Below are positions 16,784 through 46,874 of a stretch of 64,000 nt of DNA, piece by piece. Numbering within the stretch: the stretch's first letter is position 1; each line of letters opens with the position of its first letter. Under the pieces are notes generated by a model. That model was not told the origin of the DNA. It searched no databases and worked only from the letters and a program-made list of their open reading frames with translations. This stretch comes from Candidatus Shapirobacteria bacterium (GTDB lineage: Bacteria > Patescibacteriota > Microgenomatia > UBA12405). The stretch lies in assembly GCA_028704885.1 (NCBI GenBank), contig JAQWEN010000001.1, positions 350,679 through 414,678 on the forward strand, written 5' to 3'. The position numbers and the translations under genes were made by a program.

Positions 16784-17959
16784 TTAATTATTTTTTCTTA
16801 AAAAGGCTGGAATGTCGTATTCGTCGACAATATCAATTCCGGCGGGAACTTCTTTGTTGTCTAAAAATTCTTTTATTTGATTGTCGCTAAGTTCGTTGGG
16901 TGTTAATAGATTATTATCTGATTTTTGGGTATTTTCTGCTTTAGGCATATTAATTAAAGTTGGTTGAGGTTTTTTTATATGCTGATAAAGACTGGCGCGA
17001 TTAGAGTCAAAACCAGTAGCAATGACAGAAATTTTTACTTTGCCTTTTAGATCATTATCAATGGTGGCACCAAAAATAATATTGGCGTCAGGAGCGGTTC
17101 TTTCAGTAATAGTTCTAGCGGCTTCTTCAATTTCGGCCATGGTAATGTCGGGTCCACCAGTAACATTAATTAAAACTCCTCTAGCACCTTCAATATTGAC
17201 CTCGATAAGGGGAGAATTGACGGCATCTTCGACGGCTTTTTGAACTTTATTTTCACCTTCAGCCTCGCCTACTCCCATTAACGCCGAACCAGCATTGCTC
17301 ATAACAGTCTTAATGTCAGCAAAATCGAGATTGATTAAACCTGGAACGGTAATTAAATCGGCAATAGCTTTAGTGCCCTTACTTAAAACAGAATCGGCAA
17401 TTTTAAAAGCTTCAAGAAGAGTGGCCTTAGTATTAACAACTTCCATGACTTTTTGGTTGGGAATGACAATTAAGGTATCGACATTTTCTCTTAATTGAGA
17501 AATTCCTTCTTCGGCATTGGTCATACGACGAGTACCTTCGAATAAAAATGGTTTAGTGACAACTCCGATAGTTAAAATACCTAATTCTTTTTTAGCAATT
17601 TGAGCAATAAGCGGAGCAGCTCCAGTACAAGTGCCTCCACCCATGCCGCCAGTAATAAAAACCATGTCGGTGCCTTCCAATACTTCTTTAATCCTTTCTT
17701 TGGATTCTTCGGCAGCTTTTTGACCAATTTGAGGATTACCGCCAGCCCCTAAACCCTTAGTTAATTTTTCGCCAATTTGAATTTTAACTGAGGCTAGAGA
17801 ATTTAATAAAGCTTGAGAATCGGTATTAACAGAAATAAAATCGACGCCTTTAATGGAATCTTCTAAAATCATTGAATTAATGGCATTATTACCACCGCCA
17901 CCAACTCCGATGACTTTTATTTTGGCAAATTGTCCAGTGAGAGTTTTAATTAATCCCAT
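16784..17959 (-). CDS. ftsZ: Cell division GTPase FtsZ
   Basis: [26 protein letters not shown] tubulin signature. Confidence 0.95.
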
Positions 17960-17962
17960 ATA

Positions 17963-19210
17963 TTAGGGTAAAAGTGGTTCTAGTAGTTTTTTTATCTTAC
18001 CGATAAATCCACCCATAGAAACTTTTGGAGCTTTAATGCTTGCCCCACTACTCTTTTTGGCATTTTTATTGTGAATCAAAAGACCAATGGTGCTAGTATA
18101 AGCTGGATTAATAATATCATCAACTATACCACCAACTCTTGGAGGGTTGGCAATTCTTAATGGAAGAGGAATTATTTTGTTACAGATTTCTTTGGCATTA
18201 ACAGTCATGGCGCCACCACCAGTTAAAACAATTCCAGCCGGAATTGATTGATGAAAACCACTGGCTTCAATTTGAGAATAAATTAGACTAAAAATTTCTT
18301 CTAAACGAGGTTTAATTATGCCATTTATAGCCATTTGGAGAGAGATTTTTTTCTTATCATCAGAGTGAATATCAAAATGAGATAATTCGATTTCATCCTC
18401 AAATTTTTTGGTTTCAGACAGTTTAGCCAATTTTAATTTTATTCTTTCGGCATCTTCGATGGAAAATCGAAGACCAATGGCAATGTCGTTAGTAACATTA
18501 TTGGCACCAACTGGAATTACAGAAGAAAATACTGGGGAACCTTCAATGAAAATAGTTATATTAGTAATGCTGCCGCCAATATCTACCAAAGCAACACCTA
18601 ATTCTTTTTCAGTTTCGGTTAGAGCGGCGGTGGCAGTACTCAATCCGGCGTAAGTTAAGGATTCAATTTTAATGCCAATGTCTTCAAGACATTTTTTGAG
18701 ATTTTTTAAAGCAGGACTGGAAGCCAAGATTAAATGAGCTTCAACTTCAAGGCGAATACCATTCATGCCGACTGGATCAATAACCCCCTCTTGACCATCA
18801 ACTGTAAATTTTCTTTGAATAATATGAATTATTTCTTTGCCACTGGGAAGAGAAATTGCTTTGGCAGCTTCAGTGACTCGGTTAATATCATTAATATCAA
18901 TTTCACCATTGGGATTACTAATAGCGACAACGCCATGTGAATTAACTGATTCAATATGAGGAGCGGAAATGGAAATATGAGCATTATTTATTTGAAAACC
19001 AGCCATTCTTTCGGCTGATTCAATACTTTGAGTAATAGTGTGGGAAGCCTGTTCCAGATTGATTATTTGACCTTTTCGAAAACCTAGGGAGGGAATTGAA
19101 GAAACGGCCACAATATTAAATTTATCTTCAGCTTCAAAATATTGACCAACTAGGGTAGTGACCTTTGAGGTACCGATATCGATTACATTAATTATTTTTG
19201 TATGTTGCAT
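17963..19210 (-). CDS. ftsA: Cell division protein FtsA
   Basis: Actin-like ATPase: INVIDIGTSKVTTLVG...DIGGSITNITIF...; position upstream of ftsZ. Confidence 0.9.
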   Translation of the reverse strand: MQHTKIINVIDIGTSKVTTLVGQYFEAEDKFNIVAVSSIPSLGFRKGQIINLEQASHTITQSIESAERMAGFQINNAHISISAPHIESVNSHGVVAISNPNGEIDINDINRVTEAAKAISLPSGKEIIHIIQRKFTVDGQEGVIDPVGMNGIRLEVEAHLILASSPALKNLKKCLEDIGIKIESLTYAGLSTATAALTETEKELGVALVDIGGSITNITIFIEGSPVFSSVIPVGANNVTNDIAIGLRFSIEDAERIKLKLAKLSETKKFEDEIELSHFDIHSDDKKKISLQMAINGIIKPRLEEIFSLIYSQIEASGFHQSIPAGIVLTGGGAMTVNAKEICNKIIPLPLRIANPPRVGGIVDDIINPAYTSTIGLLIHNKNAKKSSGASIKAPKVSMGGFIGKIKKLLEPLLP

Positions 19211-19571
19211 ATGGGTGGCTAATACTTAGATCAACTAATTGTAGTTGTTTATTATTAATTTTAGCTGTTTTTAAAATTTCTTGTAAAGAAGTAATTTGCC
19301 AATAAGGATTTTTTTTGGTTGATAAAATAATTTTAATTGGATTGTTACTTTCATTAATTATATAGAATTCGAATTGATTTTGATAATCCCTAGTAGTGCT
19401 TTTAGTGATGTTAATTTGGGCGGTTTTTAATCCGTGTTCTATTTGGAGATAAAAATTATTTTTGGTGGAAGTTGGATCAATTTTGTTTTCAGAAAAATTT
19501 ACTAGTGAATAAACAGAAAGGGATAAAGAAAAAATGAAAATAATAAAAAGAAAAATTTTAAATAATTTCAT
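19188..19571 (-). CDS. Small TM-anchored protein at the FtsQ/DivIB position (minimal FtsQ-like?)
   Basis: 127 aa, N-terminal TM (IFLFIIFIFSLSLSVYSL) then a beta-rich ectodomain; sits between murG and ftsA where ftsQ normally lies. Too short for canonical FtsQ. Confidence 0.3.
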   Translation of the reverse strand: MKLFKIFLFIIFIFSLSLSVYSLVNFSENKIDPTSTKNNFYLQIEHGLKTAQINITKSTTRDYQNQFEFYIINESNNPIKIILSTKKNPYWQITSLQEILKTAKINNKQLQLVDLSISHPYATYKNN

Positions 19572-20679
19572 GAATTAATCTTAAAAATTTTGGATTATCA
19601 GTTACTTTGATAATATTATTTTTGGTTTTAATAGAAATTAATTTATCTATGGAATTTAAAAGATTAATATTATTTAGATTTTTTTCTTCGATTATTTCAG
19701 TAATTTGAGGTAATTTTTCTTTTACCCAAAGGGCATTTAAAAATTGTTCATTTTGTTGACTGACTTTTAAAGGAATTAAAATAGATTTTTTATTTAAAGC
19801 GACGATTTCTTGGCTAGTGTTGGCTCCAGAGCGACTAATAATTAAATTTGATTTATTTAAACTGTAAGCCATATCATTGGCATCTAGATAATCAAAAGCC
19901 TGATAGTTAGAATATTTTTTTTCTAATTTTTTAAATTTGGAAAAATCATTTTTGCCTGTTTGATGAACAATAGAATATTTTTTTAATTGAGGTAAAAGAT
20001 TTTTGATAAATAAATTAATAGTATGAGAACCCTGATTACCGGCGGTAATAAAAATGTCGATTGGATCCCCTATTTTTGATTTTTTAGGATTAAAAAGTTC
20101 TTGACGTAAAAGATTTCCAGTAACAACTATTTTATTTTTGGGAAGGTTATCTTTTTGTTTTTGATTATTAAAAGAAAGAGCAACTATATTGACAAAAAGA
20201 CTATTAATTTTAGTAGTTAAACTGTTAGTTAAAGTTTGTTCATGGGTAATTGAGGGAATTTTTTTAAAAAAACCACTGATAATAATTGGAACAGAAACAT
20301 AGCCACCAAAAGAGACAATAATATCCGGTTTTATTTTTTTAATTAATCCAAAAGCCTTGAAAATTGATTTAGTGGTTTGGGGGAGACCTTTAAGGGTGTT
20401 TGGAAGCCAACGACGGTCTAATTTTCCACAATCAATTGAATAAAAATTGATCCCAATCTTGGGAATAATTTTTGATTCTATGGAAGGAGTATCATCAACA
20501 CTGGAATTATTTTTTCGACCGATATAATTTATTTGCCAAGCAATTTTAGGATCTGTCTTTAATTGTCGAATGAGTTCTAGAGCTGGAGTGAGATGTGTCC
20601 CGGTGATAATAATCGTCTTTTTTGTTTTGACTGTGGTCACTCTTTGAGTATAACAGCATTTTTTGGTTTTTTTCGACAT
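19558..20679 (-). CDS. murG: Lipid II synthase MurG (UDP-GlcNAc:MurNAc-pentapeptide GlcNAc transferase)
   Basis: IIITGTHLTPALELI (G-loop variant), C-terminal ISRSGANTSQEIVALNKKSILIP; first ATG at 20679 (ORF track uses TTG at 20703). Confidence 0.75.
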   Translation of the reverse strand: MSKKTKKCCYTQRVTTVKTKKTIIITGTHLTPALELIRQLKTDPKIAWQINYIGRKNNSSVDDTPSIESKIIPKIGINFYSIDCGKLDRRWLPNTLKGLPQTTKSIFKAFGLIKKIKPDIIVSFGGYVSVPIIISGFFKKIPSITHEQTLTNSLTTKINSLFVNIVALSFNNQKQKDNLPKNKIVVTGNLLRQELFNPKKSKIGDPIDIFITAGNQGSHTINLFIKNLLPQLKKYSIVHQTGKNDFSKFKKLEKKYSNYQAFDYLDANDMAYSLNKSNLIISRSGANTSQEIVALNKKSILIPLKVSQQNEQFLNALWVKEKLPQITEIIEEKNLNNINLLNSIDKLISIKTKNNIIKVTDNPKFLRLIHEII

Positions 20680-21724
20680 TTCTGACCAAACCAATGGCGA
20701 CAAAAAGAGTTAAAAGTGATGATCCCCCGTAGGAAATAAAAGGAAGAGGAACCCCAGTTAATGGAATTAAGGCAGCGATAGCGGAAATATTAATTAAACT
20801 TTGATAGGCAATCCAACAAGCGGTACCGGAAACTAGTAAACTTTGGAATGGATCAACTATTGTTTGAGAAAATTTTAGCAAGTAATTTATTAAAGAAAGA
20901 TATATTAACAGAACGACAAAGAGACCAATAAAACCAATTTCCTCTCCTATAACAGCCAGAATTGAATCGGTTGATATTTTGGGTAAAAATTTATATTTTT
21001 GGTCTGAATTGGCAAAACCTTTACCAAAGAGGCCTCCAGATGAAAGAGTCAAAATAATTTGATTACTGTGATAAGAAGAAGTTTCTTGATTTTGTTGTGG
21101 TTCTAGAAAAGTTTTTAGTCTGGCAGATCGATAAGGAGAAAGAAAAATTAGAGGGATACTTAAAACTAAAATAAGACTAATAATTCCAAACAAAGGCATA
21201 ACGTCGCCACCGGAAAGATAATAAATAGAACCAACAATTGCAGAAATTAGAATGGCGGTACTTAAATTTGGTTCGATGATTATAAGAATAAAAGGAATTC
21301 CTAAGTAAAGAATTAAATTTTTTATATGACGTTTTTCTTCTTTAGAAAAGAGATAAGCAAAATAAATGACAGAGCTTAGTTTTAAAATTTCTGATGGCTG
21401 GATGCTGGTAAAACCTAAATTAAGCCAACGTCTGGCCCCTAAAGCCTGATTGCCAAGTCCGGGAATTAAAACTAATATTAGGCCTAAAATAGAAGCTAGA
21501 TAAAAAATAAATGAAAATTTTTTAATAGTTTCAATTTTAATTTTAGAGGTTATATAAAAAGAAACTAGGCCTAATGCAAGCCAAAATCCCTGTTTTTTAA
21601 TAAAGAAAAATTTATCTCCGATAGTGGAATTGGCCTCACTTAAAGAAGAAATAGAAATAAAAATAAGACCAATAAAAATGAGACTAAAAACTAAAAATAG
21701 TAAGGGCGATTTAGTTTTTTTCAT
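20546..21724 (-). CDS. ftsW: SEDS-family cell division protein FtsW
   Basis: ISTDSILAVIGEEIGFIG, GVPLPFISYGGSS; dcw position upstream of murG. The polar C-terminal tail overlaps the murG 5' end by about 130 nt. Confidence 0.8.
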   Translation of the reverse strand: MKKTKSPLLFLVFSLIFIGLIFISISSLSEANSTIGDKFFFIKKQGFWLALGLVSFYITSKIKIETIKKFSFIFYLASILGLILVLIPGLGNQALGARRWLNLGFTSIQPSEILKLSSVIYFAYLFSKEEKRHIKNLILYLGIPFILIIIEPNLSTAILISAIVGSIYYLSGGDVMPLFGIISLILVLSIPLIFLSPYRSARLKTFLEPQQNQETSSYHSNQIILTLSSGGLFGKGFANSDQKYKFLPKISTDSILAVIGEEIGFIGLFVVLLIYLSLINYLLKFSQTIVDPFQSLLVSGTACWIAYQSLINISAIAALIPLTGVPLPFISYGGSSLLTLFVAIGLVRNVEKNQKMLLYSKSDHSQNKKDDYYHRDTSHSSSRTHSTIKDRS

Positions 21725-22826
21725 TTAAATTTTTAGGAATAGAAATTGGATTAGTGGTTTTGGATAAAGGATAAGAAAAATTTATTTTTTTACAGGTATA
21801 GTTATCTTTATTTTTAGGAGTTATTTCAGAGCCAATAATTTTTTTGTTATTAAATCTAGCTTGTTCGGATTTTATATCGATTTGATAATCAATTTTCAAA
21901 AATTCAGCTAAGTGAAAATAAAAAAGAGGAATAACTTTCTGATCAAGTTCAAGCTTGGTATAAAAAGCAAAGGAAGCAGTTAATCGAGGGTTACATTCTA
22001 GAAGATAAACCTTATTTTTATCAATCAAAAAATCAAGACCAAAAAATCCCTTATAACCAATTTCTTTTATAATTTTTCCAAAATTTTCGGTTATGGTATT
22101 AATTTCTTCGACTATTTTTGGTGGAGCAAAAGATGGCCATTGACGACCAACTGTAGTAAAAGGGTTTTGAGTAAAAGGTTTAATGCCAGTATATTGAAGG
22201 GCAGGAGGACTTTGAATTAGACCAAACTTGGTAAGACTGCAATTGTTTAACAAAGAATAAGAAGATGCAATAAAAGGGCTGTATTTAGTAATAACTTCTG
22301 AAGAAATTTTATCTTTAATTTCATCCCAATTTGAGGCAGAAAAGGTACTGTTTCCGGCCCAACCAAAATGAGTTTGGAGAACTAATTTTTGACCATAAAG
22401 TTGTTGATATTTTAAAAAGTTTTTTTGATTAAAGGTATCTATAGAAAAAGGAATTGTCGGCAGATTGTATTTTTGACAAAGCTTAGCAAATTTAATTTTA
22501 TCTTCTAAAAAGCGATTGATCGGCGAGGGATTACTGACATTTACCCAATTATTTCGTTGACATAAAATGTCAATTTTAGCTGATGGTTTAAATGGGATTA
22601 TGGCTGGAATAAGAGAATTTGAAGTCGATTTTATGTATTCAATTACTTTAGAATTACTAAGAAGTTTACCGCTATTTTTAATTTTTATAGATGGATAATC
22701 AGAGAGATAAATTTTATGAAAATTTTTAAGTTGAGGTAAATTGATATCTAAAAATTTATCAACGACTAAAAAATAGAAGGCAAATTTTGAATTATTGATG
22801 ATATTTTCTAAATTTATCTTTGACAT
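21711..22826 (-). CDS. ATP-grasp carboxylate-amine ligase (not Ddl-like by motif)
   Basis: GLDFLIDKNKVYLLECNPRLTASF is a generic ATP-grasp C-motif (RimK/CarB style E-x-N-P-R) rather than the Ddl E-x-N-T-x-P-G-x-T; a ~150-aa N-domain precedes it. Start overlaps the PLP gene by 13 nt and the end overlaps ftsW by 14 nt. Confidence 0.6.
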   Translation of the reverse strand: MSKINLENIINNSKFAFYFLVVDKFLDINLPQLKNFHKIYLSDYPSIKIKNSGKLLSNSKVIEYIKSTSNSLIPAIIPFKPSAKIDILCQRNNWVNVSNPSPINRFLEDKIKFAKLCQKYNLPTIPFSIDTFNQKNFLKYQQLYGQKLVLQTHFGWAGNSTFSASNWDEIKDKISSEVITKYSPFIASSYSLLNNCSLTKFGLIQSPPALQYTGIKPFTQNPFTTVGRQWPSFAPPKIVEEINTITENFGKIIKEIGYKGFFGLDFLIDKNKVYLLECNPRLTASFAFYTKLELDQKVIPLFYFHLAEFLKIDYQIDIKSEQARFNNKKIIGSEITPKNKDNYTCKKINFSYPLSKTTNPISIPKNLNEKN

Positions 22827-23587
22827 CCGGTGAGTATTATGACTGGATAATCGCCAACATCTAAATTATTTTTTATAGCTTTTTTTAGGCCAGCAAAAGC
22901 CATCGCACCTTCAAGAGAAGTTTTAATGTTGTTTGATTCTAGCGTTTTTTGAGCTTCTAAAATATCTTGATTTTGGATAATTAACTCTGAACCTTTAGAA
23001 TTTTTGACAGTGGAATTAACTTTATTTTTTAAAGGTTGATATTTAACAGTTAAAGCATCAGTTAAGATGGTGTTTTCTGGTTTAACAGCAAAAAATTTGA
23101 CAGATGGACTTAAAGCCTGGGAAATACCTAAAAGAGTGGTGCCGCTACCGACAGGAACAAAAATACTGGTTATTTGAGGTAATTCACTTACTAATTCTTT
23201 GCCAATTTCTTGATAACCAATTAAGGCTGATGGATCAGTTGATTGGCGAAGAAAATAGGCTTTATTTTTTTTGGAAAATTTAATAGCATCACTGATGGGT
23301 TTGTCGGAAATAATTATTTGACAATTATTTTTTTTAATTAAATCAAGTTTGTTTTGGTTGACTTTTGGAGAAAGGAAAACAGTTAAATTAATTTGATTAA
23401 GATGACAAAAATAGACAGCAGAAATAGCAGCGTTGCCAGTACTGGAAATAACAGCACTCTTAAAACCTTGTTTTTTTAAATTTGCTATTTGAAAAATTAA
23501 GCTTCGGTCTTTAGCTGAACCAGTAATATTAAGATCTTCTCTTTTAAAATATATATTTTCTAATTTAATTAAAGGAGTGTTTGCCAT
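22814..23587 (-). CDS. Compact PLP-dependent fold-type II enzyme (CysK/ThrC/Trp-synthase-beta superfamily)
   Basis: TPLIKLENIYFKREDLNITGSAKDRS (PLP-Lys motif), ISSTGNAAISAVYF, and C-terminal SLEGAMAFAGLKK...VIILTGCQR matches the CysK-type C-terminus. At 257 aa it is shorter than canonical CysK/ThrC. Confidence 0.65.
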   Translation of the reverse strand: MANTPLIKLENIYFKREDLNITGSAKDRSLIFQIANLKKQGFKSAVISSTGNAAISAVYFCHLNQINLTVFLSPKVNQNKLDLIKKNNCQIIISDKPISDAIKFSKKNKAYFLRQSTDPSALIGYQEIGKELVSELPQITSIFVPVGSGTTLLGISQALSPSVKFFAVKPENTILTDALTVKYQPLKNKVNSTVKNSKGSELIIQNQDILEAQKTLESNNIKTSLEGAMAFAGLKKAIKNNLDVGDYPVIILTGCQR

Positions 23588-23627: not shown

Positions 23628-23786
23628 ATGAACGAAAAAGTTATTTGTCCGGATTGTCAAACAGAAATTGAATTAATTGAAGCCACAATGGTTGGAGATA
23701 TTATTGAATGTCCAGAATGTGGGACCGAAGTAGAAATTTTATCTCTAAATCCCCTAAAATATCGGGAATTAATTGAGGAAAAGTAA
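23628..23786 (+). CDS. Unannotated 52-aa zinc-ribbon protein resembling LysW/ArgW amino-group carrier proteins
   Basis: ATG 23628, TAA 23784-23786. Translation: MNEKVICPDCQTEIELIEATMVGDIIECPECGTEVEILSLNPLKYRELIEEK. The pseudo-repeat CPxC..E.EL....G.IIECPECG.E.EI..L.PL mirrors the LysW pattern as I recall it (Thermus CPECGAELRLENPELGELVVCEDCGAELEVVGLDPLRLE), but it ends EEK rather than EDWGE. It falls below the ORF-track length cutoff. Confidence 0.45.
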   Translation: MNEKVICPDCQTEIELIEATMVGDIIECPECGTEVEILSLNPLKYRELIEEK

Positions 23787-24323
23787 TCGATAAAAACCTT
23801 GATGGATAAATTTTTTATCAGTAAGATCGGCTTGGCCATATTTTACTCCCCTACCAGAAAAAGAACTATCAACATAATTGATAATATTACCCTGTTTTTC
23901 GATGATAAATAAAACATGGTGACCATTTTTTTGGCGGACTAAATCACCGGTTTGAATGTTGTTTAAATCGGTTATTTCCTTGGAAATTGGAGCGGAGGTA
24001 AGCATGTCAGCGGAAGTTTTTCGGGGATTAAGGTTAGTTTCAAAATAAAAATTTAACAATTGGCAAACAAGACCAGAACAATCGATTCCAAGATGATTCT
24101 TTTTTTGAAAGTTATAAAATTCTTGATTGGTTAATTTAACCAAATCTATTTTTTGTTTTTGAGCAAGTCTAATAGTTTCAGTAGCAATTTGTCGATAATT
24201 GCCTTTACCACCAAGAAATTGTTCCTTAATTATTTTGCCGTCTTTAAGGATGTTTTTACTATAGGGTAAGCCAATATAATATTGAATTTCCTGTTTTAAT
24301 AAATCTAATTTATTCCCAGCCAT
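23769..24323 (-). CDS. NlpC/P60-family cysteine peptidase (papain-like Cys/His)
   Basis: GIDCSGLVCQLL is the catalytic Cys motif DCSGLV; GHHVLFII supplies the His. First ATG at 24323; the ORF track extends to a TTG at 24389. Confidence 0.55.
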   Translation of the reverse strand: MAGNKLDLLKQEIQYYIGLPYSKNILKDGKIIKEQFLGGKGNYRQIATETIRLAQKQKIDLVKLTNQEFYNFQKKNHLGIDCSGLVCQLLNFYFETNLNPRKTSADMLTSAPISKEITDLNNIQTGDLVRQKNGHHVLFIIEKQGNIINYVDSSFSGRGVKYGQADLTDKKFIHQGFYRLLFLN

Positions 24324-25339
24324 AATCCAAAAATTGCTAATATAATCCCAGCTAACCAAGCGCGCATAACTATCTTTGGTTCTTCCCAACCAATACTTTG
24401 AAGAGTTAAATGAAGAGGGGCAGCGGGAAATATTTTTCTTTTTAAATATTTTTTACTAAGTAATTGAATGCCACTAGACATACCTTCGATAATGAAAGGA
24501 GCACCGACAATTATTAAGGGGACTATTTTTCCTAAAAGAAGAGCAATAACAGCGAAGGTGGCTCCAAAAGAAAGGGAACCAACATCACCAAGCCAAATTC
24601 TGGCTGGATAGACATTAAAATATAAGAAAGCGATTAGGGCGCCAATCCAAAGAGCTAAAAATGAGGAAATAACAGTATCTAGAGAATTATTGGCTAAAAT
24701 CCAAAATGCAAATAAAGCAATCATTAGTAATCCACTAGAAAGTCCATCTAGACCGTCAGTAATATTAAAGAAATTAGCAAAACCAGTAATAATAATAGTA
24801 GAAATGGGAATGAAGAAAAAACTCAGATGAACAGCTCCGAAAAATGGTAGATAAATAAATTCTATTTTTAGTTGAAAATAAATCATTAAAGAAATAATTA
24901 ACGAAATTATTATTTGTAAAATGAATTTATGGATCATTCTTAATCCAAAAAAACCAGTTCTTTTAAAGCCAAAGAATTTATTAATATCATCGTAAAGACC
25001 TAATAATCCGAAACTAATAAAGGTAAAGAATAGAATAAATAATTCTTGTTCTATGTTGTAATTAGAGGAAATAAAAATTCGAGAGAATTTGAGAATAGGG
25101 AAAAGAATTATAAACATGAGGCAAACAGAGACGATGATTAACAGGCCTCCACCGACAGGAGTTCCTGATTTTTGATTGTGAAATTTATCAAAAATAGTGG
25201 TTCTTTTATTTTGAAAATCAGTGGTTTTTTGAACTTGTCGTTGGAATTTTAGTTTATAAAGAAGATTAATAAAAGGAACAACTAAAATACTAGAGATTAA
25301 GAAGGAAAAAAGGACTAGACCGAGATATAAGTGCATCAT
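24305..25339 (-). CDS. mraY: Phospho-N-acetylmuramoyl-pentapeptide transferase MraY
   Basis: NFFNITDGLDGLSSG, DDINKFFGFKR, multi-TM. Confidence 0.9.
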   Translation of the reverse strand: MMHLYLGLVLFSFLISSILVVPFINLLYKLKFQRQVQKTTDFQNKRTTIFDKFHNQKSGTPVGGGLLIIVSVCLMFIILFPILKFSRIFISSNYNIEQELFILFFTFISFGLLGLYDDINKFFGFKRTGFFGLRMIHKFILQIIISLIISLMIYFQLKIEFIYLPFFGAVHLSFFFIPISTIIITGFANFFNITDGLDGLSSGLLMIALFAFWILANNSLDTVISSFLALWIGALIAFLYFNVYPARIWLGDVGSLSFGATFAVIALLLGKIVPLIIVGAPFIIEGMSSGIQLLSKKYLKRKIFPAAPLHLTLQSIGWEEPKIVMRAWLAGIILAIFGLWLGIN

Positions 25340-25343: not shown

Positions 25344-26672
25344 TTAGGTTTTTATATACTCTATGTTAGCACCTAAAGAACAAAGACGTTCAGCTAATTT
25401 TTCATATCCTCTTTCAATATATTCAACACCGTCAATAATTGAAATGCCGGGTGCTGTAAGAGCGGCAACAGTGGCGGAAGCTCCAGCTCGAAGGTCGTTA
25501 ATGACAAAATTGGCTGGTTTGAGCATGGTGGGTCCATAAATTTTTACACCGTGGAAATATTCTGGATTATCACTGGCTTGGTTAAATTGATAGTAACTAT
25601 CAGGATCGTCAATGATTGGATTAAAAAATTTAAATTTGCTGCCCATTTTTTTAAGATTTTCAATGTGTTGAAATCTGTTTGGAAAAACTGTTTCAATAAG
25701 AGAACTACAACCGACAGTTTGGGTTAAAAGTACAGTAAAAATTGCCTGCCAGTCAGTCATAAATCCTGGTTCTGGGCCAGTTTCAATATCAATACTGGTT
25801 AACGGCTTTACCCATTGAATACAAATTTCATCATTACCAATTCTGACTTCGGCCCCCATTTTTTTTATAGTATCTAAAAAGGTTTTGACTATATCTGGTT
25901 TGATTCTTAAGATGCAGATAGAACCTTTGGTTGCCAAAGCGGCACAAGCAAAAGTAACAATTTCATTTCGATCACAAATTACACTGTGTTCGGTTCCATT
26001 TAGAGAAGAAACTCCCTGAATAGTAATTCTTTTTTCATCGGTTGGGTCTCTTTGAATTTTAGCCCCCATTTTATTTAACATTAAAATAAGATCATCTATT
26101 TCTGGTTCAAGAGCGGCATTATCAATAATGGTTTCACCTTCAGCTAGAACGGCGGTCATAATAATTACTTCGGTGACAGTATGAGATGGTTTGGTAAAAG
26201 TATAATGAGTACCAATAATTTTGTCGGTATTAAAGGTAATTTTATGATCTGTTTCGGAAACTTTAATATTCATTTGAGAGAAACAATCAAAAAGACGATC
26301 AAGAGGTCGGTTGCCTAATTTGTCTCCTCCTGGAGACGGAATGGTGGCGGTGCCAGTTCTGGCGAGAAGTGGAGCCACAAAAATAAAAGAAGTTCTAGAT
26401 TTTTCACCAGTACCACTGGGAACAATTGAATTAGTTATTTCTGGAGTAATTAATTCAAGACAATGCTCCCCTGTTTGTTTTACTTGACAGCCGAGACTTT
26501 TAGCAATACTGGTAGTTATTTTTACATCGGATATCTGAGGAACATTATTTAACAAGACGGTTTTGTCGGTCAACATTGAAGCAATTACTTGTTTGAAACT
26601 AGCGTTCTTGGCACCTCTAATAGAAACTTCGCCTTTAAGTTGTTTTCCGCCGGTTATTATGTATCTGGACAT
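25344..26672 (-). CDS. murA: UDP-N-acetylglucosamine 1-carboxyvinyltransferase MurA
   Basis: ITGGKQLKGEVSIRGAKNASFKQVIASML...LNNVPQISDV; 442 aa. Confidence 0.9.
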   Translation of the reverse strand: MSRYIITGGKQLKGEVSIRGAKNASFKQVIASMLTDKTVLLNNVPQISDVKITTSIAKSLGCQVKQTGEHCLELITPEITNSIVPSGTGEKSRTSFIFVAPLLARTGTATIPSPGGDKLGNRPLDRLFDCFSQMNIKVSETDHKITFNTDKIIGTHYTFTKPSHTVTEVIIMTAVLAEGETIIDNAALEPEIDDLILMLNKMGAKIQRDPTDEKRITIQGVSSLNGTEHSVICDRNEIVTFACAALATKGSICILRIKPDIVKTFLDTIKKMGAEVRIGNDEICIQWVKPLTSIDIETGPEPGFMTDWQAIFTVLLTQTVGCSSLIETVFPNRFQHIENLKKMGSKFKFFNPIIDDPDSYYQFNQASDNPEYFHGVKIYGPTMLKPANFVINDLRAGASATVAALTAPGISIIDGVEYIERGYEKLAERLCSLGANIEYIKT

Positions 26673-26675: not shown

Positions 26676-28049
26676 TTATTTTAAAGAATTAATAATAGAT
26701 TTGACAATCTTGTTTGCCTCAAAACCGCCAGAACTCATATTTATTAAAATGTCACCACTTTTAAGATTTTGTTTGTAAAAATTAACAATATCTTCGTCTA
26801 TGGGAATATAAATTAAATTTTGACCAATGATATCTCTAAAATCTTTGGCAGTACTGCGATTATTTTTGTCGATAATATTATTATAGTTTAATTTAGATAA
26901 AACAATTTCAGAAGCTAAAGAGAAAGCATTTTTAAAATCTTTTAAACTTTCTTTATGTTGAATAAAAGAGGCATGAGGTTGATATAAAACTTTGATATTT
27001 CTTTTGGGAAAATGAGATTTAATGGCTGATAATGTAGATTTGATTCTGTTTGAAGATTGGGCAAAATCATCAAAAATCATGATATTTTTTTTATCAATAA
27101 TTTTTTCGATTCGACGTTTAATGCCTTTAAAAGTTAAAACAGCCTTTTTAATATCTGTTTGATTTAGATTAAGACTGTCGGCCATAGCAACTGCGGCTAA
27201 AATATTTTCAAAATTTAGTTGGCCGATTAATTTGGTTTTAATTTGAATAGTATTTCTGGGAGTTCTAATCTCTAAAAGAGAATAATTCTTTTTTATTTTG
27301 ATATTTTTCAGATAATAATCGGAATTGGATGAATTATAAGTAATTATTTTCGATTTGGAATAAAGACTTAATTCTTTGGTTTGAAAGCCTTTGGAATTAA
27401 TAAGTAAAAATCCTTTTTCGGGAATATTAGTTATTAATTTTTTAAAAGCATTAAAATTAGCAATTTCGGTTGAATAGGAATCTTTGTGCTCCCAATCAGC
27501 ACTGGTTAATAATAAAAATCTGACTGGATAATACAAGAATTTGGCTTGATCGTCGAGTCCATGAATTGATTCATCAGCTTCGACAATAGACCAATCTGAG
27601 GAAGAAATATTGGTAGCCGGAAAATGGTTAATAGCTTCGCCGCCAAACATATAGTTTGGATTGAGATTTGATTGACAAAAAATCCAAGAAATTAAAGAAG
27701 TAATAGTTGTTTTACCATAAGTTCCGGCAATTAAAACAGAATTTTCTTTAATTAAGTTTTCGGCAATAAATTGACTTGCTGAAATATATTTTATATTTAA
27801 TTTTTTAATTTGGTCGAATTCTTCTTTGGTATTTTTAAAATTAGAAAATGAAGAACCGATTATGGCTAAGTCGATAGTGGAGTCAATTTTGGAAGAATTT
27901 ATTTTAATATCAGTTTTTTTAAGAAGAGTACTGACAGGGGGATATATTTTTTCCTGATCAGAACCGGTAACTATATGACCTTCTTTTTTAAGAGCAACAG
28001 CCAAGGAGGCCGTCATAGTTCCAGCTATTCCTAAAATATGGATGTGCAT
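26676..28049 (-). CDS. MurC/Mpl-family Mur ligase; N-terminus most similar to murein-peptide ligase Mpl
   Basis: MHIHILGIAGTMTASLAVALKKEGHIVTGSDQEKIYPPVSTLL closely parallels E. coli Mpl MRIHILGICGTFMGGLAMLARQLGHEVTGSDANVYPPMSTLL (from memory); P-loop IAGTYGKTT; EADES. Confidence 0.7.
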   Translation of the reverse strand: MHIHILGIAGTMTASLAVALKKEGHIVTGSDQEKIYPPVSTLLKKTDIKINSSKIDSTIDLAIIGSSFSNFKNTKEEFDQIKKLNIKYISASQFIAENLIKENSVLIAGTYGKTTITSLISWIFCQSNLNPNYMFGGEAINHFPATNISSSDWSIVEADESIHGLDDQAKFLYYPVRFLLLTSADWEHKDSYSTEIANFNAFKKLITNIPEKGFLLINSKGFQTKELSLYSKSKIITYNSSNSDYYLKNIKIKKNYSLLEIRTPRNTIQIKTKLIGQLNFENILAAVAMADSLNLNQTDIKKAVLTFKGIKRRIEKIIDKKNIMIFDDFAQSSNRIKSTLSAIKSHFPKRNIKVLYQPHASFIQHKESLKDFKNAFSLASEIVLSKLNYNNIIDKNNRSTAKDFRDIIGQNLIYIPIDEDIVNFYKQNLKSGDILINMSSGGFEANKIVKSIINSLK

Positions 28050-28076: not shown

Positions 28077-28670
28077 TTAAACATATGGAATCCAATTACT
28101 ATCTTTAAAATATTCAAAACCAGGCATATTTCTTTTGTAATAACCTGACTCTTGAGAAAAACGACCAAGATAACAATATTTTAAGCCTAATCCTTGACTG
28201 TCGATTATAACTTGGAGAACTAATCTGATTGGTAAATTACTGTTGGCAAAAGCTGGATTGTAAAAAACATAAGCAATATGGCTAATTTCTTTTGAAAAAT
28301 AACACAAAGAATAGGCAATAATTTTATTTTGATCGTCTTTCCAAATATATAGATAATTAAAAATATGATTTCTAAAAACGTTTTTTACGGAACTGACTGG
28401 AAAATCCCAAGCAAGGGTTTTTGTCCAACTAATAATTTCTTTTTGAATTTTAAAATTATAATCAAAATCTTTTAGAGCTATTTTTTCAAAAGTAAAGTTT
28501 TCGGTTTTTCTTAAAATTCGGCGATTTTCTGAACTTAAATTGAAATTTTCTAAATTAGAACGACAACTGGTTTGAAAATAAAATGAATTTTTATCGTTTC
28601 TTTGGGGTAAAAGTCCGTTTTTATAATTTTCCTCAATACTATTAGTATTTTTTAAATTGAATTGAGTCAT
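28077..28670 (-). CDS. Ate1/Bpt-like aminoacyl-tRNA-protein transferase homolog (ATE_C-like), tentative
   Basis: SHIAYVFYNPAF...NLPIRLVLQVI and YCYLGRFSQESGYYKRNMPGFEYF parallel recalled Ate1 C-domain segments (SSVYFFYDPDY...[37 protein letters not shown]). No CGYC N-motif is present. Confidence 0.35.
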   Translation of the reverse strand: MTQFNLKNTNSIEENYKNGLLPQRNDKNSFYFQTSCRSNLENFNLSSENRRILRKTENFTFEKIALKDFDYNFKIQKEIISWTKTLAWDFPVSSVKNVFRNHIFNYLYIWKDDQNKIIAYSLCYFSKEISHIAYVFYNPAFANSNLPIRLVLQVIIDSQGLGLKYCYLGRFSQESGYYKRNMPGFEYFKDSNWIPYV

Positions 28671-28672: not shown

Positions 28673-29974
28673 TTATTTTATTTTTCTAAGTCTAAAAGCG
28701 GTTCTGAAAGCTTCTGCTTCAGACCAAGGATATTCGGTGTGACCATGAAGAATAGTGGTCTCATGGCCTTTACCACAAGCAATAACAACATCATTTGGTT
28801 GACTTAGTTTAATAGCTAAGTTGAAAGCATCTTGACGATTGGGGATATTAAAATAAACAAATTTATTTTTTGATAATTCAATTATTTTTTGAATTTGTTT
28901 TTTAGTTTTGATTTCTTGATAATCAATCAATTCTGATTTTTTAGGATCTATGCCACCAATTATCTGTTTGTTAATATTTTCTATTTTTTCATTTCTAGTG
29001 TCATCAGAGGTAATTAAGGCAATATTAGCTAATTTAGAAACAATTTCACCCATTTTAGGACGTTTGGATTGATCTCGTCCACCAGTGGCTCCAAAAATAA
29101 CAATAAGATTACCTTTGTTAATTTTTTTAAGTGATGAAAGTGACGATTCTAGGGCAAAAGGAGTATGGGCAAAATCTATAATAGTTTTAAATTTAAAATC
29201 ATTTGAAATTTCTTCTCGACGACCTTTGGTTTCGGGAAAATGCTCGATGGCTTTTTGGACAAAAGATGAATCAATTTTTAATTTTTGACAAACGGCTATG
29301 GCTAGAAGGATATTATAAATTTGATATTCGTAATTACTATCGGTGGTAAATTTCTGATCATTAACTTCAAAACTAAGAAGATTTTGATCTAATTTAATTT
29401 TTTTGGCTTGATAGTCTGAATTTTCTTTAATACTGAATGTTTTAAAAGGAACTTTAATTTGTTTTTTAATAATTTCGAAAGATTGATCATCTTTATTTAA
29501 AACGGCATTTTTTGATAAAGAAAATAATTTGGCTTTGGTATTAATGTAATTATTTAAATTTTTGTGATAATCAAGATGTTCATGGGAAGTGTTGGTAATT
29601 CCAGAAATTTCAAAATTACATCCAGAAAAACGATACTGATCAAGAGCATGAGAAGTAACCTCACAAACAACATGAGTTATTCCAGCCTTAACCATTTCAG
29701 CAAGAATTTTTTGAAGTAAAGATGGGTCTGGGGTGGTAGTGTGAAAACCAGTGTCGATTTCCCGATCTTCAATTTTGGCACCAATAGTAGTAATTAAGCC
29801 TGTTTTTAGACCAGATTGCTTTAAAATTTCATGAATTAAGGTACAGGTGGTAGTTTTACCATCGGTTCCAGTAATTCCAATAAGAGTCAATTTTCTTGAA
29901 GGAAATCCGTAGTAAAAGTTATAAAAAATACTTTTAGGTAGATGAATTCCAATATTTTTAAGTTTTTGAATCAT
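28673..29974 (-). CDS. murE: UDP-MurNAc-tripeptide synthetase MurE-like Mur ligase lacking the usual N-terminal UDP-binding domain
   Basis: FYYGFPSRKLTLIGITGTDGKTTT (P-loop), IIDFAHTP (D-x-A-H-x-P), IVIFGATGGRDQSKRPKMG...ALITSDDTRNE, ACGKGHE; only about 25 aa precede the P-loop. Confidence 0.7.
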   Translation of the reverse strand: MIQKLKNIGIHLPKSIFYNFYYGFPSRKLTLIGITGTDGKTTTCTLIHEILKQSGLKTGLITTIGAKIEDREIDTGFHTTTPDPSLLQKILAEMVKAGITHVVCEVTSHALDQYRFSGCNFEISGITNTSHEHLDYHKNLNNYINTKAKLFSLSKNAVLNKDDQSFEIIKKQIKVPFKTFSIKENSDYQAKKIKLDQNLLSFEVNDQKFTTDSNYEYQIYNILLAIAVCQKLKIDSSFVQKAIEHFPETKGRREEISNDFKFKTIIDFAHTPFALESSLSSLKKINKGNLIVIFGATGGRDQSKRPKMGEIVSKLANIALITSDDTRNEKIENINKQIIGGIDPKKSELIDYQEIKTKKQIQKIIELSKNKFVYFNIPNRQDAFNLAIKLSQPNDVVIACGKGHETTILHGHTEYPWSEAEAFRTAFRLRKIK

Positions 29975-29986: not shown

Positions 29987-31636
29987 TTATAACAAATCGT
30001 TTAGTTTTGACGCTAATTCGTACCAAATTGGAGCGGCGGTACTTGATCCCCAAGGGGAAGTTTTAGGATTATTAATGGTAACAATCATAGTAAATTTTGG
30101 GTTTTCACAGGGTGAAAAACCAATATATGAAGCAATGGTTTTAGAATCAGTATACTCTCCACCAATAGCTATTTGAGCAGTACCACTTTTAGCACAAACT
30201 TCCAGATTTTTAGGTTTAAATTGGGAAACAACACCATTTTCAACGGCATATTTTAAAATTGATTTCATATCCTTAATGGTTTGATCACTAAAGATTTTAG
30301 TTTCAGTTTGATTTTTATTTTTAATGATTTTATCCCCTTCTGTAAAATAATTGACAACTTTTGGTTTAACTAAAATACCGTTGTTAGCGATAGTATTAAA
30401 AGCTTGAAGCATATTAATTTGAGTGACGACAATCCCTTGGCCAAAGGAAGCGGTGGCTAAATCAATTTCTGGCCATTCGGTTTTTAATGATGGTTTGGCT
30501 TCTCCTTGAAGATCAATACCGGTTTTTTGACTAAGCCCAAGTTTTTGATAATAATTTAGGAAATTTTTAGTGCCAAGCTTAGCAATAATATGACTCATGC
30601 CGATATTGTCTGAGTTTTTGATAATATCTTGAAGACTAGAATCGGGATGAAGTTCATTATCCCAATTACTAATAAAATATTTACCGATAACATTGGGTCG
30701 ATTACATTGAGTACAAATATAGTTTGTGTTTATCGCTTTGGCATCGAGGGCCATAGAAACAATTATTGGTTTAAAAATTGATCCTGGTTCAAAAAGATCA
30801 GAGATAGCCGGATTCCTAATGGAACTGATTGTAGCCGAACTGCTGCTAGTAAGAGAAGACATAGCAATAATAGCTCCGGTTTTTGGTTCCATAATAGTAA
30901 TAGATCCAGAATCAGCCGAATATTTATCGATACCTTCTTTTAAAAGTTTTTCAACATAAAATTGAGCACTACGATTAATGGAGGTAAAAATATTTCTACC
31001 ATTTACTGATTCAGAGCTCCAACTTTTTTTATTTAGAATGGTCTTACCAGTGGCGTCTTGAGGGGCCCAAACAAAACCGGTTTTACCTTTTAATTGTTTT
31101 TGATAAAAAGCTTCTAGTCCCCCATAACCAACTTGTGATCCTTGGTAATCTTTACTAATAATTCCGAGAAGATCTTTAGCCATTAAATTTTCTGGATAAT
31201 ATCTTTTGGCTATTGTTTGAAATTCAAGCCCAGGAATTTCCAATTGTTTTTTTTGATTGTCGCTAAAATAGGAATTAAAAGTAATCCATTTTTGATTGGA
31301 ATTATTTTTAAATTTATCAATTGAAATATTGTTTTCAAGCTTAAAATCAGGATAAACTTGGTCGATTTTATCAATAACTTCGTCTAAACTATTTTTTAAA
31401 TTTGGTTTATAAATTGATAGTTGATAGATAGTTTGATTTAAAACCAAAGGAAAATTATCTGATGAATATATTTCTCCGCGTTCAGGGATTATTTTTTCTA
31501 GTTTATAAGCTTGGTTTTGAGCTTTTTCTTTTAATTCAGGTCCTTTTATAATTTGCCAATAAAAAAGCCGTGAAGAGACTAAAATAAAGCAGAAAGTTAG
31601 GGCAATAGATAATATTTTTGATCTTTGATTTACCAC
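29987..31636 (-). CDS. ftsI: Penicillin-binding protein (FtsI/PBP3-like transpeptidase)
   Basis: N-terminal TM, SIFKP (SxxK), SDN, KSGTA (KTG variant); GTG start. Confidence 0.85.
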   Translation of the reverse strand: MVNQRSKILSIALTFCFILVSSRLFYWQIIKGPELKEKAQNQAYKLEKIIPERGEIYSSDNFPLVLNQTIYQLSIYKPNLKNSLDEVIDKIDQVYPDFKLENNISIDKFKNNSNQKWITFNSYFSDNQKKQLEIPGLEFQTIAKRYYPENLMAKDLLGIISKDYQGSQVGYGGLEAFYQKQLKGKTGFVWAPQDATGKTILNKKSWSSESVNGRNIFTSINRSAQFYVEKLLKEGIDKYSADSGSITIMEPKTGAIIAMSSLTSSSSATISSIRNPAISDLFEPGSIFKPIIVSMALDAKAINTNYICTQCNRPNVIGKYFISNWDNELHPDSSLQDIIKNSDNIGMSHIIAKLGTKNFLNYYQKLGLSQKTGIDLQGEAKPSLKTEWPEIDLATASFGQGIVVTQINMLQAFNTIANNGILVKPKVVNYFTEGDKIIKNKNQTETKIFSDQTIKDMKSILKYAVENGVVSQFKPKNLEVCAKSGTAQIAIGGEYTDSKTIASYIGFSPCENPKFTMIVTINNPKTSPWGSSTAAPIWYELASKLNDLL

Positions 31637-31637
31637 T

Positions 31638-31895
31638 TTAATTTTGAAGATTAAGAGTCTCTTTTAAATTTATATAGTTTTTTTGGTTAATTAAGGTTTG
31701 GATTTGACTTAAAGAAGTTAGAGACGTAAATTGTTTTTTTAATTCTTGATTGGCAATTTTTAAGGATTGAAGACTACTTTGGTTTTTATTAATTGAATTA
31801 TTTTGATTAATAATTTCACTGGAATAATAAAAAGAAAAAAGGATCTGGCAGGCAATTAAAATAAAGAGAATTAGAAAAAATGGTTTATTTAACAT
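31638..31895 (-). CDS. FtsL-like small bitopic cell-division protein
   Basis: 85 aa, N-terminal TM then a coiled-coil/polar tail; located between rsmH and ftsI. Confidence 0.4.
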   Translation of the reverse strand: MLNKPFFLILFILIACQILFSFYYSSEIINQNNSINKNQSSLQSLKIANQELKKQFTSLTSLSQIQTLINQKNYINLKETLNLQN

Positions 31896-31896
31896 C

Positions 31897-32769
31897 TTAT
31901 ACTATTCTATACGATCTTAGGGTGGCTGAGCGAGAGAGTGGGTTTTTCTTAATTTCTTCAAAGGAAGCTTTGACTGATTTTTCGGCTTGACATAAAGGGT
32001 TTTGATTTAAGAATAGTTTAACAATTCTATCTTCACCGGAATGAAAAGTGATTATACAAACTTTTCCATCTTTTTTAACAACATTTAGACTTTGAATAAG
32101 TAGTTTTTTTAAATTTTCAAATTCATCGTTAACTATAATTCGAAGGGCCATAAAAATTTTTGTACTAGGATCTATTTTTGATCTGATATGACGGTCTTTG
32201 TAAAAATCTCGAATAATATTTGCCAATCTGGTGGCTGTTTTTATAGGTGATTTTTGACGTTCACTGATTATTCTTAAGACAATTGGTTTGCTATAAATTT
32301 CTTGGGCATATTTACTGAATATTTCAAAAAGCTCATCGTAGTCGTAAGTATTAATAATTTCTTCAGCAGTTAATTCTTGATTTTCTGGGTCGAGACGCAT
32401 ATCTAAGGAAGATTCGTCATTAAATGAAAATCCCCTACCTTGACCGGTTTGTTGATTTTGACTTAAGCCTAGATCAATAATTAAACCGTCAATTTTTTGT
32501 TTGATTTGATTGGTTACAATATTTTCCAATTCGTTAAAATTATTATGAACAGGAAAAAAGTGATTTTTGAAACCAGCTTCTTTAATACGGTTAGTGGCAA
32601 TTTCTAAATTTTGAGGATCTTGATCAATACCATAAACAAGGCCACCTTTTTTGAGAATTTCTAAAGTGTGGCCACCGTGACCAAGAGTGCCGTCGACATA
32701 AATTTTGTCTGGTTGGACATTAAGAAGATCAATAGTTTCGGTTGATAAAACTGGAATATGGAAATCCAT
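31897..32769 (-). CDS. rsmH: 16S rRNA (cytosine1402-N4)-methyltransferase RsmH/MraW
   Basis: HIPVL...DGTLGHGGHT...GIDQD; SAM-MTase fold. Confidence 0.9.
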   Translation of the reverse strand: MDFHIPVLSTETIDLLNVQPDKIYVDGTLGHGGHTLEILKKGGLVYGIDQDPQNLEIATNRIKEAGFKNHFFPVHNNFNELENIVTNQIKQKIDGLIIDLGLSQNQQTGQGRGFSFNDESSLDMRLDPENQELTAEEIINTYDYDELFEIFSKYAQEIYSKPIVLRIISERQKSPIKTATRLANIIRDFYKDRHIRSKIDPSTKIFMALRIIVNDEFENLKKLLIQSLNVVKKDGKVCIITFHSGEDRIVKLFLNQNPLCQAEKSVKASFEEIKKNPLSRSATLRSYRIV

Positions 32770-37989: not shown

Positions 37990-37991
37990 TT

Positions 37992-42152: not shown

Positions 42153-42153
42153 T

Positions 42154-43365: not shown

Positions 43366-43383
43366 GTTTTTTTAAATTATAAA

Positions 43384-46261: not shown

Positions 46262-46262
46262 A

Positions 46263-46856: not shown

Positions 46857-46874
46857 ACAATTTATTATATATAT

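Follow-up and report, generated by a model that had tools for sequence, protein, structure and literature searches.

The cytoplasmic Mur pathway (MurA-F) is held to be near-universal and is a major antibiotic target. What a MurC or Mpl ligase adds, an amino acid or a peptide, depends on its C-terminal domain. [quoted passage not shown] Das et al. 2011 (PMC3060825) list features specific to Mpl, among them the (S/T)AFFDKRSK loop, SGP, EPRSNT, and FAHH, and give Tyr346, His348, His376, Arg377, and Arg380 as the L-Ala-binding residues of HiMurC. We analyzed a gene related to both enzymes in a 64,000-nucleotide stretch of Candidatus Shapirobacteria DNA (contig JAQWEN010000001.1, positions 350,679 to 414,678 of the forward strand; hereafter the window). 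Judged by sequence, its product, the target, appears to be a distinct subfamily outside MurC, nearest Mpl and a member of neither family, which is the safe statement of its identity:

26676..28049, minus strand: MurC/Mpl-branch Mur ligase of a Shapirobacteria-specific subfamily, 457 amino acids (open reading frame, Pfam, NCBIfam, tree, dN/dS, AlphaFold2)

The target is encoded by an unbroken open reading frame (ORF) with an ATG start, at exactly the coordinates of the original prediction, which had been made from the sequence alone and had called it an Mpl-like ligase. Its Pfam domains are PF01225 (Mur_ligase, 31.6 bits), PF08245 (Mur_ligase_M, 58.4 bits), and PF02875 (Mur_ligase_C), the last practically at threshold (28.2 bits, cut-off 28.4). 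The ORF is real, intact, and under purifying selection: its ratio of nonsynonymous to synonymous substitution rates (dN/dS) of 0.09–0.12 rules out a pseudogene or a chance ORF. The G+C content of the window is ~30%. The AlphaFold2 (AF2) model (mean predicted local distance difference test score, pLDDT, 91.5) resembles structures of MurC, Mpl, MurD, MurE, and MurF. The catalytic core (G112, K113, T114, T115, E157, D159, E160, H188, D190, R312, R313, D327, D328) is identical in the target, E. coli Mpl (EcMpl), and E. coli MurC (EcMurC), and the P-loop GTYGKTT, the EADE Mg ligand, WEHKD, RR, and DD are kept across 39 aligned orthologs; two ATP-contact histidines are substituted in the target (GQLN, FAQS). 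On these data the target is a Mur ligase of the MurC/Mpl branch that has three domains, depends on ATP, and is maintained by selection. Two Mur ligases are encoded in the window, the target and MurE, and only the target has an N-terminal domain of the type that binds UDP-MurNAc, the UDP-linked form of N-acetylmuramic acid.

The resemblance to Mpl is clearest at the N terminus. As the original prediction had noted, the first 45 residues are nearer EcMpl (26/45 identical) than EcMurC (17/45), and over residues 1–100 the identities are 39 and 23. Like Mpl, the target has the three-domain fold of the branch in 457 residues, begins at M-H-I-H-I-L-G-I without MurC’s ~20-residue leader, and carries the motifs GIxGT(M/F) and IYPPxST (reading GIAGTMT and IYPPVST), DDF, MS(S/N)GGF, and a loop after EADE. 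For the target at full length, phmmer gives 151 bits with EcMpl against 101 bits with EcMurC, its top match by sequence among solved structures is Psychrobacter Mpl (3hn7, E 1.6e-41), and EcMpl outscores EcMurC in nearly all of its 150 closest 50%-cluster representatives from 1.84 billion proteins. For Mpl versus MurC, domain-wise group hidden Markov models (HMMs) gave 84.9 versus 45.7 bits over the N-terminal domain and 149.9 versus 139.9 bits over the central one. Nearly all of the Mpl signal lies in the N-terminal domain, which binds UDP-MurNAc, and the central and C-terminal domains are equidistant from the two families.

Mpl-specific models and residues are largely absent. The NCBIfam mpl model (TIGR01081) gives 192.2 bits on the target, below its cut-off of 388.7; as a control, the related ligase P0148 passes at 398.6 bits. 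Of the features of Das et al. (PMC3060825), MS(S/N)GGF is the only one in common with the target. The post-EADE loop is of Mpl-like length but reads SIHGLDDQAKF, not (S/T)AFFDKRSK; Tyr182 is Ser, SGP (90–92) is SAS, and in the C-terminal domain FAHH, EPRSNT, and SNG have become FAQS, QPHASF, and SSG. The N-domain signature of Mpl is GI(C/G)GTFM with a bulky residue at position 12, together with Tyr35; the target reads GIAGTMT there, with Met at position 12, and IYPP. The Mpl-like label of the original prediction thus holds for the N-terminal domain and for pairwise and profile similarity, and fails at the Mpl cut-off and in the C-terminal domain.

The Mpl-like N-terminal traits, which the original prediction had taken as evidence for Mpl, are themselves not diagnostic, because MurC-type Microgenomates ligases have them too. 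YPP also occurs in the MurC-type relatives P0170 and P0179. P0170 combines YPP and an AFFD loop with the MurC C-domain motifs DDYAHHP and PHTYSRTR, passes the NCBIfam murC model (TIGR01082, 392.7 bits), and lies in the setting pgeF-ligase-murB. The post-EADE loop by itself is found as well in the MurC of two canonical Microgenomates loci (L015, L016), and we rejected it as an Mpl synapomorphy given its presence in 133/135 sampled relatives, these among them.

Membership in MurC is hard to defend as well. The target scores 240.7 bits with TIGR01082, below the cut-off of 335.1. At the L-Ala contacts of HiMurC, the alignment gives Y346→F, H348→Q, R377→A, and R380→Q/I, with only His376 retained, so that the target has lost four of the five; F329, Q331, H359, and A360 are invariant across the target clade. 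The arginines of the L-Ala pocket hold the carboxylate of the amino acid, a group that every single amino acid has, and Mpl likewise lacks them; that they are gone points to a larger substrate in another position. The substrate-binding residues to which the original prediction had pointed as separating L-Ala from a tripeptide depart from MurC without agreeing with Mpl (QPHASF, FAQS).

Phylogeny and profile comparison place the target nearest Mpl. In a ScoreDist neighbor-joining (NJ) tree of 146 sequences (L-INS-i alignment, 200 bootstraps), a MurC clade containing EcMurC, the L015 and L016 MurC, and others (support 0.86) excludes the target, in agreement with the original prediction that it would not fall inside MurC. 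The 10 sequences of the target clade (support 1.00) group at 0.80 with 19 “sister” sequences, and both lie within a 64-member clade (0.47) that is itself paired with a 62-member clade of canonical Mpl (0.69). Profile-profile scores (hhalign) fall from 716 for the Mpl clade to 637 for an intermediate group and 527 for the MurC clade. Two other classifiers were uninformative. Ranking the NCBIfam murC and mpl scores does not sort the families, as P0148 clears both cut-offs and neither P0135 nor P0128 clears either; structure prediction with Foldseek fails to separate MurC from Mpl, since the gap in template modeling (TM) score reflects domain opening. P0135 is encoded outside any division and cell wall cluster, with a DUF1611 protein and an N-truncated MurE-like ligase (L010:349-4612).

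The target is embedded in a division and cell wall (dcw) cluster. On the minus strand the order is rsmH, ftsL, ftsI, murE, an ATE_C-like gene, the target, murA, mraY, and an NlpC/P60-like gene, then a LysW-like gene on the opposite strand, after which the cluster continues with a pyridoxal phosphate (PLP) enzyme of the PALP family, an ATP-grasp gene, ftsW, murG, an ftsQ-like gene, ftsA, and ftsZ:

31638..32769, minus strand: rsmH and ftsL, proximal dcw genes (ORFs; Methyltransf_5 in syntenic loci)
29987..31636, minus strand: FtsI-type class B penicillin-binding protein (PBP_dimer and Transpeptidase in syntenic loci; motifs in the translation)
28673..29974, minus strand: MurE, 433 amino acids (TIGR01085, 356.7 bits, cut-off 257.3)
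28077..28670, minus strand: ATE1-like aminoacyl-tRNA transferase homolog, 197 amino acids (Pfam ATE_C, NCBIfam, AF2/Foldseek)
25344..26672, minus strand: MurA, UDP-N-acetylglucosamine (UDP-GlcNAc) enolpyruvyl transferase (TIGR01072, 412.3 bits, cut-off 392.7)
24305..25339, minus strand: MraY (phmmer with EcMraY, 104.9 bits; Glycos_transf_4 in syntenic loci)
23769..24323, minus strand: NlpC/P60-like protein, 184 amino acids, probable ATG at 24323 (Pfam NLPC_P60, 23.1 bits, cut-off 23)
23628..23786, plus strand: LysW-like zinc-ribbon carrier homolog, 52 amino acids (TIGR01206; LysW matches in the PDB)
22814..23587, minus strand: short fold-type-II PLP enzyme (PALP), 257 amino acids (Pfam PALP, E 6.9e-40)
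21711..22826, minus strand: ATP-grasp ligase, 371 amino acids (Pfam ATP-grasp_3, E 1.1e-8; NCBIfam PRK06524, 110 bits)
16784..21724, minus strand: ftsW, murG, ftsQ-like, ftsA, and ftsZ, distal dcw genes (ORFs; murG TIGR01133, 178.5 bits; Pfam from syntenic loci)

The FtsI motifs SxxK (SIFK), SxN (SDN), and KSG are readable. MurE lacks the N-terminal UDP-binding domain, its profile match starting at about position 75 with only the middle and C-terminal Pfam domains found. Searching all window ORFs with E. coli MurB, MurI, DdlB, MurD, and MurF (phmmer) gave nothing beyond the two Mur ligases, and the sole MurC-like match in the window is the target. A Pfam sweep of the remaining ORFs of the 64 kb found no missing Mur or Ddl enzyme, no peptide transporter, and no recycling gene. 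The peptide salvage suggested in the original prediction thus finds no uptake or recycling gene in the window to support it.

A scan of GTDB species representatives recovered 80 loci (1.30 Mb), mostly titled Candidatus Shapirobacteria, and shows that the target clade is present in at least 80 species. Gene order is nearly invariant across the 80 loci: ftsI-murE-ATE1-like-ligase-murA-mraY-NlpC/P60-like-LysW-like-PLP-ATP-grasp-ftsW. Counting loci with a gene over loci covering that position, we found the ATE-like gene upstream of the ligase in 74/75, murE two genes upstream in 73/73, murA downstream in 56/66, the NlpC/P60-like gene in 55/55, the LysW-like gene in 53/55, and the PLP and ATP-grasp genes each in 54/55. 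No homolog of MurC, MurD, MurF, MurB, PgeF, or Ddl occurs within ±10 kb of the ligase in any of the 80 loci. At the level of the cluster, murC, murD, and murF are missing; murD and murF elsewhere were part of what the original prediction had named as a point against itself. The bypass of MurE that it had also proposed does not stand, with murE two genes upstream in every covered locus. Where murA is lacking (10/66 loci: L055, L061, L066, L070, L074, L082-L084, L090, L093), mraY directly follows the ligase. Many of the GTDB records with this type of cluster are titled “uncultured Gammaproteobacteria” (L019-L022 and others), one “Candidatus Methanoperedens sp.” and one “Saccharibacteria” (L046; L069); these look like mislabeled or mis-binned contigs of metagenome-assembled genomes.

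Two canonical Microgenomates clusters (L015, L016) served as the baseline, with the order ftsI-murE-pgeF-murC-murB-murA-(ddl)-murF-mraY-murD-ftsW. Relative to it, pgeF is swapped for the ATE-like gene, murC for the target, and murF for the NlpC/P60-like gene (L009 and L015 carry murF there), and the murD slot holds the LysW-like, PLP, and ATP-grasp genes. The target thus shares the slot of MurC between murE and murB/murA, with murA downstream, yet pgeF, murB, and murD are lacking in 80/80 loci, and the usual companions pgeF and murD are replaced around it. The murF/murC slot of the original prediction was right as to murC; the murF slot holds the NlpC/P60-like gene instead. Some loci are intermediate: L009, with a ligase 40% identical to the target, retains murF and lacks murD, and L014 reads murE-ATE-ligase-murB-murA-ddl…. 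MurE and MurF without the N-terminal UDP-binding domain also occur in the canonical clusters L015 and L016, so this truncation is unusable as evidence for peptide assembly off the nucleotide, and we rejected it as such a sign. N-truncated Mur ligases were seen at L015:4396-5631, L015:10001-11239, and L009:12759-14033.

This setting differs from that of Mpl. Canonical Mpl genes are stand-alone recycling genes, whereas the target is embedded in a biosynthetic dcw cluster beside murA, near murE, and with an ATE-like partner. E. coli mpl lies between fbp and yjgA. In a metagenome scan that used the sister-group alignment and a generic P-loop pattern, the output of which was dominated by canonical Mpl and served as a context control, most of the 72 EcMpl-type genes (best match at least 274 bits) had no cell-wall neighbors. 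Five loci with canonical Mpl-type ligases (L114, L115, L133, L137, L139; 336–357 bits to EcMpl) continue into murB, which is unusual for a recycling enzyme, and murA also follows in four of them, all but L114.

The ATE-like partner scores just under the cut-off of Pfam ATE_C (24.0 bits, cut-off 25) and matches the NCBIfam arginyltransferase model at E 7.7e-8. Its AF2 model (pLDDT 91.7) has ATE1 as best Foldseek match (8tzv, E 2.7e-9, TM 0.71), with MprF aminoacyl-tRNA transferase domains next, and this predicted structure confirms the ATE_C/GNAT-like fold of ATE1. The likeness to ATE1/Bpt and to Fem/MprF lies in this fold; unlike ATE1 and Bpt, the partner has only 197 residues, 12–15% identity, and a score under the Pfam cut-off. 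Its length against ATE1 chains of 348–503 residues suggests that it lacks the ATE1 N-terminal region. The ATE-like domain is fused to the ligase in the relative P0125, the two genes are adjacent in L009, L011, L014, L177, and four metagenome loci, and L012 has an isolated pair far from dcw genes with no murE nearby; the fusion and the repeated pairing in relatives make them a conserved two-gene module. The order in L011 is ATE-[ligase-MurB fusion]-murA, and ATE-ligase-murB clusters also occur around P0131, P0140, P0141, and P0145. Fusions among related ligases comprise ATE_C plus ligase (P0125), ligase plus MurB (P0140, P0172), and ligase plus GNAT acetyltransferase (P0252).

The product of 23628..23786 is, on the evidence of its alignment, a genuine homolog of the amino-group carrier protein LysW. 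It scores 38.9 bits with TIGR01206 (lysW), under the cut-off of 53.2, and aligns over nearly the whole length of LysW in the PDB entries 5k2m_E (E 1.2e-7) and 3wwl (E 1.8e-6). As in the LysW/LysX system, a LysW-like Zn ribbon is encoded next to an ATP-grasp ligase. Unlike in that system, the C terminus does not end in the EDWGE attachment site: it reads E-x-K in all 57 sequences, and in 54 of them EEK. By Pfam, the ATP-grasp enzyme does not resemble RimK/LysX, the neighborhood has no kinase, reductase, or aminotransferase gene, and the setting is a cell-wall cluster. The nearest solved relatives of the PLP enzyme are threonine deaminase, serine and aspartate racemases, and threonine synthase (~1e-9). 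A sequence search of solved structures returned no relative of the ATP-grasp ligase below E 0.025 and none of the NlpC/P60-like protein, which has a DCSGL motif and no obvious signal peptide.

We therefore predict that the target is the first stem-peptide ligase of a rewired, apparently undescribed pathway, and not a stand-alone recycling Mpl. A literature search, incomplete for subscription papers, found no account of the variant cluster, of an Mpl-like ligase in the candidate phyla radiation (CPR), or of any dcw cluster with LysW- or ATE-like genes. The function we favor, tentatively and with somewhat less than even confidence, is to join UDP-MurNAc with a short peptide made beforehand and so to stand in for MurC and MurD. 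The target would phosphorylate the lactyl carboxylate of UDP-MurNAc, the activation that every MurC/Mpl enzyme uses before coupling to a free alpha-amine, and join the activated nucleotide to the free N-terminal amine of the peptide, not to free L-Ala. The simplest candidate peptide is an X-Glu dipeptide, in which the ATE-like enzyme would install X from an aminoacyl-tRNA on the alpha-amine of glutamate; a single ligation would then cover the reactions of both MurC and MurD, leaving residue 3 to the retained MurE. The peptide might come from de novo synthesis by the ATE-like and ATP-grasp module, or be a scavenged muropeptide trimmed by the NlpC/P60-like enzyme.

Pre-made X-Glu best accommodates three facts: loss of the L-Ala pocket with both of its carboxylate-binding arginines, absence of murD beside a retained murE, and the coupling of the ATE-like gene to the ligase. 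In the reactions of ATE1 and Bpt, a Glu or Asp at the N terminus is acylated on its alpha-amine; the product of an ATE-like enzyme would bear the free amine that the ligase needs. Retention of murE argues for a substrate shorter than a tripeptide, and the tolerance of the Mpl scaffold for varied lengths, from L-Ala to pentapeptide, supports a peptide. The proposed route resembles that of Ddl and MurF, where a peptide pre-formed off the nucleotide is added in one Mur-ligase step, and an ATP-grasp enzyme is present in the cluster; it differs in that residues 1–2 instead of 4–5 would be added and that the peptide maker may be an aminoacyl-tRNA transferase homolog.

Several observations weigh against this proposal. 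The C-terminal domain is no nearer Mpl (group HMMs, 93.2 bits for Mpl versus 91.0 for MurC), the NCBIfam order puts murC above mpl, and HiMurC is the top Foldseek match in the PDB (TM 0.88, against 0.68 for Mpl), a comparison that does not discriminate. The deep nodes of the tree are weak (0.47–0.69), the method was NJ only, and MurC was under-sampled, with eight sequences. Because the target stands where murC would be, a MurC that evolved fast and changed its specificity is a simple alternative, and our choice of a peptide over a single amino acid as substrate is an inference. The ATP-grasp module lies exactly in the old murD slot and could be a direct replacement of MurD; the ATE-like gene also adjoins murE and could encode a Fem-like side-chain brancher. 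ATE1-family enzymes are known to act on protein N termini, not on free glutamate, and the proposal assigns no role to the LysW-like protein. Finally, murC, murD, murF, or murB could lie elsewhere in these genomes of ~0.6–1.1 Mb. None of the long contigs with the variant cluster (735,491, 578,770, 587,024, 1,117,440, and 564,127 bp) was among the best 120 of 604 MurF-type matches, which is suggestive only.

The alternative we take most seriously, though we find it doubtful, is that the target is functionally a MurC that adds one amino acid, possibly not L-Ala, and that the ATP-grasp ligase and a D-amino acid supplied by the PLP enzyme replace MurD; the ATE1-like protein would then be a Fem-like brancher at residue 3 or otherwise substitute for PgeF. 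It shares the slot of the canonical Microgenomates murC, its QPH motif is MurC-like, its presumed acyl substrate is UDP-MurNAc, and its C-terminal domain is slightly more identical to Microgenomates MurC (41–42/157) than to EcMpl (30/157); the NCBIfam order puts murC first. The placement of the ATP-grasp, PLP, and LysW-like genes exactly where murD would be, and of the ATE-like gene next to murE, also suits this view. So does the loss of pgeF, which fits a changed residue 1: PgeF is an editing factor that polices L-Ala at position 1 (PMC8844914). A MurC of merely changed preference should, however, retain the carboxylate-binding arginines, and both are lost along with the pocket Tyr and His; the target is outside the MurC clade, and the ATE-like gene is tied to the ligase by fusion and pairing even without a nearby murE (L012). 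Nor is the MurD reaction known from any ATP-grasp enzyme. It is unlikely that the target is a true Mpl that bypasses MurC, MurD, and MurE by ligating UDP-MurNAc to an L-Ala-gamma-D-Glu-diamino-acid tri-, tetra-, or pentapeptide obtained by recycling or from a host. The Mpl-like N-terminal domain, the preference for EcMpl over EcMurC, the Mpl structure as top PDB sequence match, and the Joint Genome Institute (JGI) label Mpl on homologs all point that way; a cluster without murC, murD, and murF, the very sparse metabolism of Shapirobacteria (PMC6744442), and a cytoplasmic NlpC/P60-like enzyme that could trim scavenged peptides are compatible with it. The score of 192.2 against a cut-off of 388.7, the lack of the (S/T)AFFDKRSK, SGP, and EPRSNT signatures, the murE kept alongside in 73/73 loci, the embedding next to murA, and the window without peptide transporter or recycling genes argue otherwise.

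Comparably improbable, in our estimate, is a route entirely off the nucleotide, in which a peptide would be grown on the LysW-like carrier by the ATP-grasp ligase and MurE, released by the NlpC/P60-like hydrolase, capped at its N terminus from aminoacyl-tRNA by the ATE-like enzyme, and joined en bloc to UDP-MurNAc by the ligase; MurF would participate in some lineages, MurC and MurD would be dispensed with, and in this sub-lineage MurF and Ddl too. Archaeal pseudomurein is a precedent for a pre-assembled peptide, the LysW homolog and the ATP-grasp gene are conserved (53–54/55 loci), and every cluster-specific gene receives a role, though that of the PLP enzyme is not clear. The model is purely contextual, and it has to accommodate a LysW-like protein ending in EEK, not EDWGE, and N-truncated MurE and MurF in canonical clusters as well. 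Least probable is that the target uses another acyl substrate, such as UDP-GlcNAc-enolpyruvate, or serves a polymer other than peptidoglycan. Such a role would accord with the absence of murB from the window and from 80/80 loci and with several changed ATP- and nucleotide-contact residues (GxHN→GQLN, HHP→QSS, and N69/R73/G74 not kept). Against it, relatives have murB beside or fused to the ligase (L014, P0140, P0172), mraY, murG, ftsW, and ftsI are intact, and murB may lie elsewhere in the genome.

In this order-level lineage of ultra-small CPR bacteria, MraY, MurG, FtsW, FtsI, and MurE are kept, and the genes for residues 1, 2, and 4–5 are replaced by an unrelated set: an Mpl-related ligase and ATE1-like, LysW-like, ATP-grasp, PLP, and NlpC/P60-like proteins. 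If the missing genes are truly absent genome-wide, the cluster would represent an alternative route to lipid II precursors. Such a route would account for wall building in episymbionts of minimal metabolism and would extend what aminoacyl-tRNA transferases and amino-group carrier proteins are known to do. Were the off-nucleotide route true, bacteria would have a counterpart of the pre-assembly that has been proposed for pseudomurein in archaea, and it would be the first case of residue 1 being installed in a tRNA-dependent way. There is also a warning for annotation. The target receives the label “Mpl” in the style of KEGG Orthology (KO) and “Mur ligase family protein” at NCBI, and pathway reconstructions will score such genomes as lacking MurC/D/F or as “recycling only”, neither of which is established.

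Other genes of the window complete the picture of the region. A glycyl-tRNA synthetase (33475-34797, minus strand; NF003211, 566.9 bits) lies just upstream of the dcw cluster, with a 234-amino-acid gene between it and rsmH, and an aminoacyl-tRNA synthetase with the same Pfam domains stands at that position in variant and canonical Microgenomates loci. A large polysaccharide cluster (37351-52496, minus strand) encodes about ten glycosyltransferases, Wzy_C, Bac_transf, a methyltransferase, and a hexapeptide transferase. An MprF-type transmembrane domain (LPG_synthase_TM) without the usual C-terminal aminoacyl-tRNA transferase domain is encoded at 52535-53497 on the plus strand. A second SEDS (shape, elongation, division, and sporulation) protein, RodA-like, adjoins IleRS at 11738-12733 on the minus strand.

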